The notes: generated from the letters alone by a model not told the origin. Shown: positions 57,744 to 62,417, counted from the first letter of the stretch. The stretch is 64,000 nt of DNA from Candidatus Hydrogenedens sp. (GCA_049968235.1 JBMFRC010000001.1:224001-288000), one strand, 5' to 3'. Translations and numbers: made by a program.

Positions 57744-58595
57744 TTATTTCTTATGCTTTTTAACTTGTTTTTTACGGATGGTATCCATTCTTCTTGTTTT
57801 AATAATTTGTATCGCAATAATTCCTGAAATAAATATTAGAACAAAAATCAAAACAAGGATAATCTTTATCCCTTTCGCATTAGAAGAGGTCGTTTCTTCA
57901 ATAGGCGGTGAAGCAGGGGAACTATGGTTTGAATCTGAGGAAGTGTTATTGCCCGGAAAAAGAATTTCTCCGGGAAGGACATTACAATTGACAGCGTTCC
58001 CTTCCGGGTCTGCAAGAACAGTATTAGAAAGTTTGACAAGTTGCCTGCCCGCAAGCGTGCTGTCTTCTATTGTAATGCTAACAAAAAGGATAGTTCCTTC
58101 GGGTATAGATTGTTGATTAAGTCCTGCTATGATAGTTCGGTAGGTCTGATTTTTGATCTGGTTATAAGATACCATTTTGTTAGATTTCTTTGCAGATTCC
58201 GCCACGGACATGTTTGTAATTTTTGTCCCTGCGGGAATAATAATATCGAATTGTATGCCCGAAATGCGTTCAGAGGGTTCTATTTTCAGGTCAATAGGCA
58301 AGAGAATATCCCTCTGTCCCTGCTCACACTTGACTTTTAGTGGACATAATGTTGCGGGATAGGCAAAAAGGGGAAATATAAAACCCGTCAAAAGAAGGAT
58401 AAGTATCTTAGAAAATAGACTATTTTGTTTCCTTTTATCTATTTCTTTCTTAAATAGAATTTCTGTTCCTTTATCACAGCAGATACAGTGGTCAGGGTTA
58501 TTAATAATGTGATAGTTATGGATACGAAAATTAGTAATGAATAGTCTGTTGGTAATATATTTTCTTTTGCAATATTTGTCTCTATCGTTGTACAT
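57744..58595 (-). CDS. Cohesin-like domain protein with C-terminal membrane anchor
   Basis: Hydrophobic leader …LILLLTGFIFPLFAYPA. Paralogous domain (ISGIQFDIIIPAG…RTIIAGLNQQSIPEGTI…) shared with the next two genes. C-terminal TM plus basic tail. The ATG at 58595 overlaps the upstream gene by 157 nt, so the start is uncertain. Confidence 0.5.
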   Translation of the reverse strand: MYNDRDKYCKRKYITNRLFITNFRIHNYHIINNPDHCICCDKGTEILFKKEIDKRKQNSLFSKILILLLTGFIFPLFAYPATLCPLKVKCEQGQRDILLPIDLKIEPSERISGIQFDIIIPAGTKITNMSVAESAKKSNKMVSYNQIKNQTYRTIIAGLNQQSIPEGTILFVSITIEDSTLAGRQLVKLSNTVLADPEGNAVNCNVLPGEILFPGNNTSSDSNHSSPASPPIEETTSSNAKGIKIILVLIFVLIFISGIIAIQIIKTRRMDTIRKKQVKKHKK

Positions 58596-59743
58596 TCGTT
58601 GCTCCTTCCCCTGGTTGGAGATATATTGGATATATTTAGAGCAAAATAAGGATTTTGTAAGGTTTTGTTTGTATCATCAAGGGAAACTATGCGTATATCT
58701 GAATTATTTTCGGTAGTAGCGTTCATAGTAGGCAATGAAGATTTCTCCACAGTTTTTGTGAACGGAGATGGATGCGTCCCAGCAGTCCTACCTATAGGAG
58801 TTGGATTCAAATTTTCATTTTGAGGAACTTTGTTCTCAGTAATCAGGATAGTTCTATCATCAGGTATATATTGCTTTGCCCAAAAGTTACTTTTTTCGGG
58901 AATAGGCATAAGTTTCGGTGCATTCACATTATGTTTTTTATTTTCTACTTTCCTGCTATGTAAGAATGTATCTTCATTGTGGATATAGGGATTGCTTATG
59001 TTCGTTACAAAACCTGAAGAAGAGGTTGATGAGGATGCTTTTGTAGATGATGATTGAGAATATATGGGTCGGGTTTCCGTATTTGCTACTCTTTGGATAA
59101 CGGGTTTTACCTCTGTATTCATATCAGTAATATTTGTGTTTACATCGGATTGATTGTCTATTTGATGGTTCATTTCTGTTCCGGTAGAAGTGGTGGAATT
59201 ATTTGTATCGGAAGGAGGGATTTCTTCTGCAGGATTGTTATCTGTTGAAGTTTCTGAACCTTGACTACTGTTAACAGTTGCGGATACAGGTTGTGCCTGT
59301 GGAGAGGAAAGTTTTACCTGTAAGATATTAAATCCTGGTCCATTTGTCCCCTCTGACAGAGCATTAAACTGCACTGTGAATAATTCTCCACTGGGAATTG
59401 GATGGTTATTCAATCCGATGATAAGAACTCGCAAAAGACCATACATTTTCGCAACTTGTAATTGTTTACTACTTGCCCATAAAGTGTCTCCCGGGAATGC
59501 AGATACAAATTCCCAATTCTGGGCATCATATCCACATTCCAATTGGATTCCACTTACTTCTTCTTCAGGCAAGACTGATAAAAATACATGAACAACGACC
59601 ATCGTTTCTCTTTGTTCCAGACTTGTGTCTAACATTGCAGGGAAAGATGAAATGTGTAAAAGCAAACATACTGCAAAGGGCAAAAAGAAACTCTTTTGCC
59701 TCATTTTAATAGATGATGTATATTTTCGCAATATGTTGCCCAC
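58439..59743 (-). CDS. Cohesin-like domain protein with Ser/Thr/Asn-rich linker and C-terminal membrane anchor
   Basis: Signal peptide (…FFLPFAVCLLLHISSFPA). Cohesin-like block (VSGIQLECGYD…LRVLIIGLNNHPIPSGEL…). Long STN-rich spacer. C-terminal TM plus RKK. Confidence 0.5.
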   Translation of the reverse strand: MGNILRKYTSSIKMRQKSFFLPFAVCLLLHISSFPAMLDTSLEQRETMVVVHVFLSVLPEEEVSGIQLECGYDAQNWEFVSAFPGDTLWASSKQLQVAKMYGLLRVLIIGLNNHPIPSGELFTVQFNALSEGTNGPGFNILQVKLSSPQAQPVSATVNSSQGSETSTDNNPAEEIPPSDTNNSTTSTGTEMNHQIDNQSDVNTNITDMNTEVKPVIQRVANTETRPIYSQSSSTKASSSTSSSGFVTNISNPYIHNEDTFLHSRKVENKKHNVNAPKLMPIPEKSNFWAKQYIPDDRTILITENKVPQNENLNPTPIGRTAGTHPSPFTKTVEKSSLPTMNATTENNSDIRIVSLDDTNKTLQNPYFALNISNISPTRGRSNECTTIETNIAKENILPTDYSLLIFVSITITLLITLTTVSAVIKEQKFYLRKK

Positions 59744-59753
59744 AATATTTTCC

Positions 59754-60545: not shown

Positions 60546-61844
60546 TTATTCTTTGTTTTGATTTTCTGCGTAATCCAGTATTCCATTTCCATTTGCGTCA
60601 ATGTCCTGTTCATTAGGGATGCCATCTCCATCCCAATCCTGTTCAGTGCGGTTATCGGGGTCTAAATAATTAGGGATACTATCTCCATCACTATCTTCAA
60701 TAAAATCAGGGATACCGTTGTTGTTCAAGTCAAATTTGCAATGGTTCCCATTACAAATCTGATTTTCGATAAAATCCGGTATATGATTTCGGTTTGTATC
60801 TGTAACTTCGGGTATTTGCAAACTATCCAGCCATGCCATAATTTGCTGTTGGAGTTCAGTCTGGAACTGATTCATAATAAGGTTCGTGATGGACTCCGGT
60901 CCCGGTACTCCTAACTGGATAAGTGAATTTTTAATCATTTGTTGAAAGCATTGAATCAGAGGTAAAACCATCTCCGGATAGCCATCTATCTCAATCCGAT
61001 TTAATGAAGGGGTAAGAAGAGTATCCTTATGGGGTTGGATACATGTCCCTAAACTCTGGAGTAGCGTGTTTATTAAATTTTCATTAAATCCAAGTGTTTG
61101 TAAATAGGGAATTGACAGAAGTTGGGTTTTAATCTCGTTAATGAGTTGTTCATAAATATCCGGAATTTGATTACCATTTTCATCCATATCTGGCAGAGGC
61201 TCGGCAATTCTCCCCAATAAGTTCCTTAAATCGGGAATTGGGATATTGGATTGCTGTAAATTCAGATTGTTCAACTGTAAAGGCTTACCCGTGGATAATT
61301 GTAATAACGGGATAGCTAATGAATTTAAGGGACCTATCGGAGCAAGGATAGGAAAAGATTGTAAGCCATTTCCCGAATTGCTTATCATTCCAAAAGCCCA
61401 TGTGGTCCCAACAGGAAGAAGCATCTGGAATATCCCATCCGGAGATATTTCTGAAGTTATTATCCTGCCATCTTCTGAAAGGGCTACAAATAATGGAGAT
61501 GTTCCCTGTTGTTCATTGCCGAATGTAGAGGCTATTTGTCCTTCCAGAGGTTGGACCAATCCACCAGTTCCTAACACAGAATTTATCAGTGTTTGAATAT
61601 CAAGAACATCCACCATGTCATTCTGGTTAACATCTGCCATAGGAACAGGGGCATTGATTCCGATAGCGATATTAATTCCGTTCTGGACATCCAGAATATC
61701 AATTACTCCATCTTTATTAACATCGCCCGGTATAGCGTCAATTGCTCCCCATGATATAAATGGGAAAAGCAATAGGGCAAAGATTATAAATCTCTGGAGT
61801 AAATATATTTTCCCGCTTTGGGTTGTTTTTAACTTGTTATTCAT
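60546..61844 (-). CDS. Dockerin-domain protein with C-terminal thrombospondin-type-3-like calcium-binding repeats
   Basis: After the signal peptide: GDVNKDGVIDILDVQNGINIAIG…ADVNQNDMVDVLDIQTLINSVLG, a duplicated dockerin Ca-loop (DxNxDGxIDxxD plus helix). C-terminal DxDxDG repeats (DSDGDSIPN, DWDGDGIPN, DANGNGILD). Confidence 0.65.
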   Translation of the reverse strand: MNNKLKTTQSGKIYLLQRFIIFALLLFPFISWGAIDAIPGDVNKDGVIDILDVQNGINIAIGINAPVPMADVNQNDMVDVLDIQTLINSVLGTGGLVQPLEGQIASTFGNEQQGTSPLFVALSEDGRIITSEISPDGIFQMLLPVGTTWAFGMISNSGNGLQSFPILAPIGPLNSLAIPLLQLSTGKPLQLNNLNLQQSNIPIPDLRNLLGRIAEPLPDMDENGNQIPDIYEQLINEIKTQLLSIPYLQTLGFNENLINTLLQSLGTCIQPHKDTLLTPSLNRIEIDGYPEMVLPLIQCFQQMIKNSLIQLGVPGPESITNLIMNQFQTELQQQIMAWLDSLQIPEVTDTNRNHIPDFIENQICNGNHCKFDLNNNGIPDFIEDSDGDSIPNYLDPDNRTEQDWDGDGIPNEQDIDANGNGILDYAENQNKE

Positions 61845-61925
61845 ATCGAAAATCCTTCTAAAAAATATTATTTACTAATTTTATGAAACTTTATAGATAA
61901 TAAGAGAGAAATGACAAGATATGTG

Positions 61926-62417
61926 TTAGCAAACGGGAGGGGCATGACAGAGAAAGCCTGTTAGAAAGTAAGGTTCTGTTTTAAGTCTGCGACCTCTATC
62001 CTCCGGGATAGGGGACAAACGAGTGGCTTTGTACTCTGTTTCTTTGACAAAACCTGAATAAGGCTTGAAAATGTTACCTTTGCAAAAATTGGATATTGAT
62101 TGGCTATTAACTTGAACAAAAGCGACAGGAACCTGTGACCTCTTTCCCTGCCATTTCTTTTCCAACCGATTAAATAAAATCTGTAAATCTATAACATCAA
62201 TCTTATTGTCTCCATTCTGGTCTCCTATAGAAGCAAGAGAATTTCTCTGGAGTAGGGAATGCTGAAGTAAATTCAGGTCCAGAATGTCAATTTTCCCATC
62301 AAGATTTAAATCACCCGTTTTGTAATCACAAACATTTTGATTGGATAAACAAAAGGCGAACAACACCCCGCAGGAAAGAAGTAAATAAAATATTTTCTTG
62401 CCAATTAAAAACATCAT
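61926..62417 (-). CDS. Small secreted dockerin-domain protein
   Basis: Signal peptide, then GDLNLDGKIDILDLNLLQHSLL…GDQNGDNKIDVIDLQILFNRL (two dockerin repeats). Confidence 0.6.
   Translation of the reverse strand: MMFLIGKKIFYLLLSCGVLFAFCLSNQNVCDYKTGDLNLDGKIDILDLNLLQHSLLQRNSLASIGDQNGDNKIDVIDLQILFNRLEKKWQGKRSQVPVAFVQVNSQSISNFCKGNIFKPYSGFVKETEYKATRLSPIPEDRGRRLKTEPYFLTGFLCHAPPVC

Follow-up and report, generated by a model that had tools for sequence, protein, structure and literature searches.

The textbook device for high-affinity assembly in cellulosomes is the cohesin-dockerin pair, which has also been widely adopted in synthetic biology. Such pairs occur many times outside cellulosomes as well, to our knowledge in no case with an assigned role. 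Here we describe five genes, termed A to E, on the minus strand (57744-62417) of a 64,000-nucleotide stretch of DNA from Candidatus Hydrogenedens sp. (GCA_049968235.1 JBMFRC010000001.1:224001-288000; hereafter the window), which probably build a platform for protein docking that is tethered to the membrane and has no relation to the breakdown of cellulose. The phylum concerned, the Hydrogenedentota, is common in anaerobic digesters. The operon can be placed among the non-cellulosomal cohesin/dockerin sets of Bacteria and Archaea, a loosely defined class that was surveyed by Peer et al. (2009; FEMS Microbiol Lett 291:1), as cited in PMC10066038. Like the sets of that class (for example 2xdh of Archaeoglobus fulgidus and its dockerin partner), it has single cohesins and dockerins, no glycoside hydrolases and a non-cellulolytic host, and the non-cellulosomal 2xdh is among the best structural matches to the cohesin of protein C. 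Unlike them, it is a fixed set of five genes across a phylum, with two transmembrane (TM)-anchored cohesins on a long and a short stalk, a cohesin fused to an undescribed EF-hand-like module, and two dedicated non-enzymatic dockerin proteins.

Open reading frame (ORF) calling bore out the five minus-strand genes that had been proposed in an earlier note on this DNA, made from the sequence alone. These encode E (61926-62417; 163 aa), a small exported dockerin protein; D (60546-61844; 432 aa); C (59754-60542; 262 aa), with a signal peptide, a cohesin and a second module that we call modC, and no TM helix; B (58439-59743; 434 aa), starting at GTG 59743 or ATG 59704; and A (57744-58595; 283 aa). 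The intergenic gaps are 81 nt (E-D), 3 nt (D-C) and 10 nt (C-B), and the last two genes, B and A, share 157 nt, a pattern expected of an operon. A promoter and terminator scan was uninformative (21 sites found against 21.4 expected). All five proteins have N-terminal hydrophobic export segments.

Pairwise BLASTP showed that A, B and C have in common a paralogous block of about 130 aa (A against C, E = 2e-20 with 33% identity over 150 aa; A against B, E = 6e-9; B against C, E = 2e-9). Pfam Cohesin (PF00963, gathering cut-off 24.1 bits) matched C at 44.8 bits (aa 31-165; 60048-60452) and B at 26.3 bits (aa 40-155; 59279-59626). The cohesin of A (aa 86-215; 57951-58340) was assigned from its BLASTP match to that of C; the A sequence alone gave no Pfam Cohesin match, and A-type orthologs in loci L006 and L007 carry precomputed PF00963 matches. 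C was the modeled cohesin of the three. In an AlphaFold2 (AF2) model based on 26 orthologs, its residues 30-165 formed an all-beta sandwich with a predicted local distance difference test (pLDDT) score above 90, and the top 50 Foldseek matches of this model in the PDB were all cohesins (6kgf_A, E = 7e-13; 5nrm_A, target template-modeling score 0.84; range of target scores 0.8-0.84), indicating the nine-stranded, jelly-roll beta-sandwich of the cohesin fold.

Dockerin_1 (PF00404, cut-off 22.9 bits) matched E at 37.7 bits and D at 24.2 bits, and the N-terminal dockerin regions of the two proteins are alike (BLASTP E = 9e-8). The dockerin of E spans aa 33-88 (62154-62321), with the F-hand segments DLNLDGKIDILD... 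and DQNGDNKIDVID..., and that of D spans aa 39-95 (61560-61730). Each dockerin contains two segments of about 22 residues in which a 12-residue DxNxDG...D calcium loop is followed by a helix. In the AF2 model of D (50 sequences; pLDDT 89.3, predicted template-modeling score 0.84) these helices lie at residues 50-60 and 80-91, in agreement with the type I dockerin fold. Six-frame translation of the whole window gave four dockerin-type calcium-loop 12-mers in total, all of them in D and E, and no further dockerin or modC gene was found in the window besides those of the cluster. At positions 10-11 of the loops the two dockerins agree in their residues (I/V then L/I), and both are internally near-symmetric; they may compete for the same cohesin(s) or bind in a dual mode. 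The earlier note had read the locus as three cohesin-like paralogs with two canonical duplicated dockerins, and had proposed hidden Markov model searches and structure prediction as a check. Both families scored above their cut-offs and a beta-sandwich was predicted for C, so the cohesin and dockerin assignments stand.

The same note had two of the cohesin proteins ending in a TM helix and a Lys/Arg tail, which we confirmed for A and B. B consists of a signal peptide, the cohesin, a T/N/S-rich linker of about 240 aa (39% T, N and S), a TM helix (58481-58555; hydropathy 2.36) that is kept across loci, and the basic tail AVIKEQKFYLRKK, and thus has the form of a long tether. A has the form of a short one, in which an N-terminal extension of about 55 aa is followed by a signal/hydrophobic segment, the cohesin, an S/T/P linker of about 25 aa, a TM helix (57810-57881; hydropathy 3.38) and the long basic tail QIIKTRRMDTIRKKQVKKHKK (57747-57809), where 8 of the last 15 residues are K or R. 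An (A/S)(Y/F)PA motif closes the N-terminal hydrophobic segment in A, B and C alike. As for the third cohesin protein, C, the description "secreted" agrees with its signal peptide and its lack of a TM helix but is incomplete, as C also carries the conserved modC. No SLH (S-layer homology) domain or LPXTG motif was found in the five proteins, the anchors being the TM helix and basic tail. Of an exosortase/rhombosortase-type sorting signal neither the motif nor the enzyme was seen: the A- and B-type proteins of the different loci share no conserved PEP or GG motif just ahead of the TM helix, and the window holds no sortase, exosortase or sortase-like gene. An NCBIfam search of the operon proteins returned no matches. 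Elsewhere in the window, a plus-strand gene (43173-44207) encodes a DUF1559 protein with a prepilin-type N-terminal methylation motif, similar to type II secretion pseudopilins, which hints that the genome may have an export route of the type II secretion kind.

Related loci (numbered with the prefix L) were classified by phmmer on stop-to-stop ORFs, with the window proteins as seeds. About 24 loci encode the middle domain of D, and in these a small dockerin gene is followed by D and then by 2-4 single-cohesin genes, at D identities down to 29%; the closest named genome is that of Ca. Hydrogenedens terephthalaticus (L008), with a D that is 87% identical. NCBI proteins from a Candidatus Hydrogenedens sp. 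genome assembled from a metagenome match C and D at about 100% identity. An E homolog lies ahead of D in almost all operon loci. In most of 21 loci the cohesin proteins have either modC and no TM helix, or a TM helix and a basic tail, and the exceptions are mostly genes that are cut by a contig end or have a GEGE-repeat tail. Anchored cohesins come in two forms, with 210-290 aa after the cohesin (B-like) or with 50-85 aa (A-like). One Hydrogenedentes metagenome-assembled genome (MAG; CAILVY01) has two paralogous copies of the operon (L015 and L021), one with a cohesin-modC protein and the other with four cohesin genes and no modC, and some cohesins of this clade end in long GEGEGE repeats. We found no description of the operon in the searchable literature, including the Hydrogenedentota genome papers, and this applies to the fixed phylum-wide gene set with TM-anchored cohesins of two tether lengths, to the cohesin-modC fusion, to the D family and to the C-terminal motif of E.

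The module modC (aa 166-262 of C; 59757-60047; about 97 aa) is made of two tandem repeats. Alignments showed that each repeat has an EF-hand-type loop, a helix with the pattern (E)LLRxIQ(F/Y)xN and then a ...TEDG(Y/F) element, and that certain His, Asp, Glu and Arg positions of the module are invariant and one Cys pair, Cys198 and Cys215, is conserved. The conserved Cys pairs of modC and of D were counted in favor of export to an oxidizing location. No Pfam family covers modC. EF-hand_6 matched 21 of 30 members at E up to 1 (best 5.6e-5), weakly, with the window copy at 16.6 bits against a cut-off of 25, and a sequence-profile search of the PDB gave no match (best E = 0.18, to the calcium-binding protein p22). 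The possibility that modC is a divergent Dockerin_1 was supported neither by Pfam (2 of 30 members, weak) nor by hhalign (probability 5%).

A profile search of 1.84 billion cluster representatives gave 2,990 modC matches with E of 1e-3 or below, of which 1,155 had E of 1e-30 or below. The module stands nearly always at the extreme C-terminus or straight after the signal peptide, at times in 2-4 copies. Sampled cargo included thermolysin-like M4 and M14 peptidases, a PhoPQ-related esterase, InlB-B-repeat proteins, FGE-sulfatase-like domains, and CHRD and LRR proteins. A single Hydrogenedentes MAG (locus tags PLI09_) accounted for at least seven different modC entries among the top 120 matches, and in L006 the operon is directly adjoined by one additional dockerin protein and by a modC protein of 494 aa. 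This distribution, as read from sequence, is what would be expected of a docking or anchoring module. Two further modC gene contexts (L088 and L089) had no cohesin nearby and were uninformative on the partner of modC. The first of these (L088, 4813-9113) holds three tandem paralogs of about 370 aa and, after them, a protein of 1,577 aa and a sulfatase. One of these paralogs (P0097; 8001-9113) has modC at its C-terminus and is labeled by one source as a protein of Roseovarius pacificus, so that modC occurs at least nominally beyond the Hydrogenedentota.

Our overall reading, which we hold to be somewhat more probable than its alternatives combined, is that the five genes encode a cohesin-dockerin assembly that depends on Ca2+, is not a cellulosome and sits on the outer side of the cytoplasmic membrane. 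All five products would be exported by Sec. A, on its short stalk, and B, on its long one, would be anchoring scaffoldins with the K/R tail in the cytoplasm. C would be an adaptor, either docking through modC, with an anchored cohesin or some other ligand in the envelope as its target, or capturing a dockerin with its own cohesin. D and E would be dedicated non-enzymatic dockerin ligands, D bringing a transthyretin-like domain, a helical domain and a calcium-binding tail that resembles thrombospondin type 3 (TSP3) repeats, and E bringing its C-terminal (H/N)APP peptide. The outcome would be a defined multi-protein envelope complex held together by Ca2+-dependent pairing. As modC is found on thousands of secreted peptidases, esterases and adhesin-like proteins of the phylum, the same platform probably tethers a broad set of modC-bearing exoproteins as well; the "self-contained kit" of the earlier note does not hold, since modC ties the operon to these many other secreted proteins. 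It is possible, if doubtful, that modC is an unrecognized class of cohesin-binding, dockerin-analogous module and the operon the core of a phylum-wide, membrane-tethered docking system for the exoproteome. If modC does bind cohesins, thousands of modC-tagged peptidases, esterases and adhesins would hang on the cohesins of A and B, with D and E being architectural, E through its HAPP peptide, and the whole would be a functional counterpart of the cellulosome for non-cellulosic substrates, with a new docking chemistry and in a diderm lineage.

Several observations weigh against an assembly of this kind. We infer the pairings of cohesins with dockerins and any binding of modC to a cohesin, as well as the location of the complex in the periplasm or at the surface. 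The hhalign alignment of modC with the operon dockerins was confined to the 10-residue calcium loop, and the AF2 confidence of modC (50-73) was too low for fold searching. A few records labeled as other phyla contain modC with no cohesin seen nearby, and in one operon clade the first cohesin lacks modC. The main uncertainty concerns the envelope. Hydrogenedentota are predicted to be diderm, with a Gram-negative envelope (PMC11406978), so that, barring an additional export step, the anchored cohesins would lie in the periplasm, a siting that fits poorly with the display of secreted hydrolases. This same predicted envelope speaks for a periplasmic structural tether that links the inner membrane to peptidoglycan or the outer membrane through the TSP3-like tail and beta domain of D and is never surface-exposed; the operon would then encode a phylum-specific envelope-spanning or envelope-organizing structure and not a display platform. 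The C-terminal TM helix with its positive tail implies an N-out topology in the inner membrane, the operon is conserved phylum-wide within housekeeping neighborhoods, and two fixed tether lengths are conserved. TSP3-type repeats are, moreover, frequent in the periplasmic linkers of OmpA-family proteins. We nevertheless consider such a tether rather unlikely, given that modC cargo consists of typical extracellular hydrolases and adhesin-like proteins, that the 240-aa T/N/S-rich linker of B is like those of extracellular scaffoldins, and that no peptidoglycan- or outer-membrane-binding domain was detected in the five proteins by Pfam, NCBIfam or structure search.

The breadth of modC, on about 3,000 clusters that include hydrolases and adhesins and with several per genome, could also mean that A and B anchor all dockerin- and modC-bearing enzymes in a generic exoenzyme display platform, a "proteosome" analog in which C, D and E are merely three ligands among others. 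Non-cellulosomal dockerins on proteases and other proteins are known (Peer et al., 2009, as cited in PMC10066038). However, the genes for D and E keep strict synteny with the cohesin genes throughout the phylum, and the architectures of both proteins are conserved and non-enzymatic, which argues for structural core components; each scaffoldin has one cohesin only, and the window offers no additional dockerin- or modC-bearing partner. We regard a generic platform as improbable. It is also conceivable that the folds are there without the pairing, with the cohesin-like domains serving as spacers or Ig-like modules, the dockerins and modC as calcium-binding EF-hand stabilizers, and the genes being co-located for another reason. 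The cohesin of A falls below the Pfam threshold by itself and modC yields weak EF-hand matches only, as this explanation would have it. It is nonetheless very improbable, as 2-4 cohesin genes strictly co-occur with two Dockerin_1 genes in about 24 divergent loci, which argues against a mere resemblance of folds, both families pass their profile thresholds and the fold tests, and all solved examples among the fold matches are binding pairs.

Within the assembly proposed here, D and E have further conserved parts. The dockerin of D is followed by a transthyretin/CnaB-like beta-sandwich domain (aa 96-200; 61245-61559), a helical domain (aa 201-345; 60810-61244) and C-terminal Asp-rich, TSP3-like calcium-binding repeats (aa 346-432; 60549-60809). 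Alignment of D homologs showed Cys268 and Cys299 of the helical domain to be invariant, as are Asp columns in the repeats. The helical domain carries D-x-N-G-N-x-I-P-D-F calcium-loop motifs and its helices (206-342) were modeled at pLDDT above 90; a structure search gave no convincing match for this domain or for the Asp-rich coil. The thrombospondin-type-3-like repeats of the earlier note stand at the level of motifs, as the Asp-rich tail has DxDxDGxPN-type motifs and cross-matches TSP3-bearing proteins from many phyla, and one homolog (P0133) is named TSP3-repeat-containing by NCBI. Membership of the family does not stand, the TSP_3 score (PF02412; 11.7 bits, E = 0.21) being below the Pfam cut-off of 25 bits.

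E has a signal peptide with a hydrophobic segment at aa 8-26, the dockerin, a spacer of about 60 aa and, at its extreme C-terminus, the motif EPYFLTGFLCHAPPVC (61929-61976), which is kept in homologs. The family consensus is approximately (E/Q)xY(L/F)xT(L/G)x x(H/N)(A/S)PP, followed by 2-8 aa, and other E clades end in ...ERYLFTLTPHAPP... and ...GLMINAPP... The motif was present in 22 of 22 E-type homologs examined (from loci L005-L025 and L087), while the spacer is not conserved. Among 123 window ORFs of at least 80 aa that were scanned, E alone ends in an (H/N)(A/S)PP-type motif. The only explanation that we can offer is that it may be a short linear motif for binding or processing. The idea that E is a lipoprotein was ruled out because the Cys of its signal peptide varies among homologs.

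The overlap of B and A (58439-58595) had been put down in the earlier note to a mis-called start or a recoding event. Here the TM anchor of B and the N-terminal extension of A are encoded in different frames. A Shine-Dalgarno (SD) sequence, GGAAGGAG (58602-58609), lies within the B coding sequence, 6 nt upstream of the ATG of A (58595-58593), and the conserved B peptide RGRSNEC is the B-frame reading of this SD and ATG. The AAGGAG-N6-ATG start of A inside B, with both SD and ATG, is kept in 7 loci. These are low-GC loci with D identities of 48-87%, in which the SD-ATG lies 156-171 nt upstream of the B stop and the A frame is open throughout. A start at TTG 58391, the sole other canonical one for A in the window, would leave the signal peptide with no n-region and only half of its hydrophobic core, and L009 and L011 have no alternative A start at all ahead of the cohesin. 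When the last ~55 codons of B were resampled with synonymous codons, the alternate frame was open in 0.2-10% of trials per locus (P = 0.002-0.10), and as the B C-termini of two sub-clades are unrelated in sequence, the open frame was observed several times nearly independently. In the high-GC relatives L006, L023 and L087, A starts at or just past the B stop.

The overlap is therefore genuine and lineage-specific. Neither recoding, a frameshift nor a mis-called start accounts for it, as the TM helix, basic tail and stop of B are conserved together with the SD-ATG of A in the 7 loci, and as no canonical downstream start preserves the A signal peptide. Most simply, it is likely to be a device that couples translation of A to that of B. 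The extension of about 55 aa that A gains ahead of its hydrophobic segment is basic and poorly conserved, and it illustrates clearly how an N-terminal extension can be overprinted on the membrane anchor of a neighboring protein.

The flanks of the operon are unrelated among loci (histidine and tryptophan genes, rpsF-ssb-rpsR, ispDF, acyl-CoA dehydrogenase and others). The gene glgX adjoins the operon only in the closest relatives, and a big adhesin gene only in the window and L002. The adjacency of adhesin and glgX that the earlier note had pointed to is thus real in the window but is not conserved; as the flanks differ among loci, these neighbors are incidental and a functional link of either to the operon was ruled out. 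An HD-GYP gene (63067-63936) was likewise unsupported as a part of the system, with an HD_5 gene adjacent again in L007 only; close relatives have a different HD gene, divergently oriented. The adhesin-like protein (49301-54769, minus strand) has 1,822 aa, which corresponds to about 190 kDa and not to the "1.8-kDa class" first given, and it carries Ig, Bact_surface_Ig-like and I-set domains with a C-terminal TM helix and an RRRQR tail. The local GC content of its gene is 0.46, compared with about 0.38 in the surroundings. It stands beside glgX in the window and in L002, and L001 lacks it, which gives it the look of a variable insertion.

The remaining window is mostly housekeeping (glycine cleavage, SecA, NrdD, ABC transport). 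A ZMP/ZTP riboswitch (RF01750, 64.6 bits; 15713-15800, minus strand) lies directly upstream of a gcvT-gcvH-gcvPA-gcvPB-folD operon (10286-15639, minus strand), a placement that fits the role of this riboswitch in folate and one-carbon control. A restriction-modification remnant (25648-27215, minus strand) occupies a low-GC patch (0.33), with an N6_N4 DNA methylase at 25648-26583 and a 138-aa ORF that matches positions 1-128 of the 203 positions of the ThaI restriction endonuclease model, and which is possibly a truncated endonuclease on this alignment.

The locus offers a compact case for study, in that a fixed operon of an uncultured phylum brings together three cohesins and two dockerins, a conserved C-terminal peptide, and a terminal module whose family numbers about 3,000 clusters. 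An orthogonal docking pair that is new might come to light here, and the locus could explain how Hydrogenedentota organize their secreted hydrolases.

Seen beside the described systems, the operon would work like the anchoring and adaptor scaffoldins of clostridial and ruminococcal cellulosomes that tether dockerin partners to the cell with one or a few cohesins (for example C. thermocellum OlpA, OlpC and SdbA; A. cellulolyticus ScaB and ScaC; R. flavefaciens ScaE). It has in common with them the adaptor logic of a cohesin joined to a second docking module and the Ser/Thr-rich linkers, and Coh-OlpA (3ul4) and Coh-OlpC (4dh2) are among the best fold matches of the C cohesin. It differs from them in its anchor, a TM helix and basic tail in place of SLH domains or a sortase signal, and in its predicted diderm host. 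The operon also lacks a multi-cohesin primary scaffoldin, a carbohydrate-binding module (CBM) and a cargo of carbohydrate-active enzymes (CAZymes). A, B and C have one cohesin each and no CBM match, D and E have no catalytic domain, and the GlgX and AXE1 esterase of the window are without dockerins, so that within the window no dockerin is attached to a CAZyme. The earlier note was therefore right that this is not a cellulosome.

The adaptor C departs from cellulosome adaptors in that its second module is not a recognizable dockerin. modC does resemble a type I dockerin in consisting of two tandem loop-helix units, in being terminal on many secreted proteins and in being sometimes multiplied, and the 12 residues of its first loop (DSNRDWIISLTE) make up a canonical EF-hand loop. 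Its unit of about 45-50 aa is, however, longer than the 22 aa of a dockerin and has an extra conserved ...C...TEDG(Y/F) element, and loop position 12 is Glu, as in true EF-hands, whereas the operon dockerin loops have Asp.

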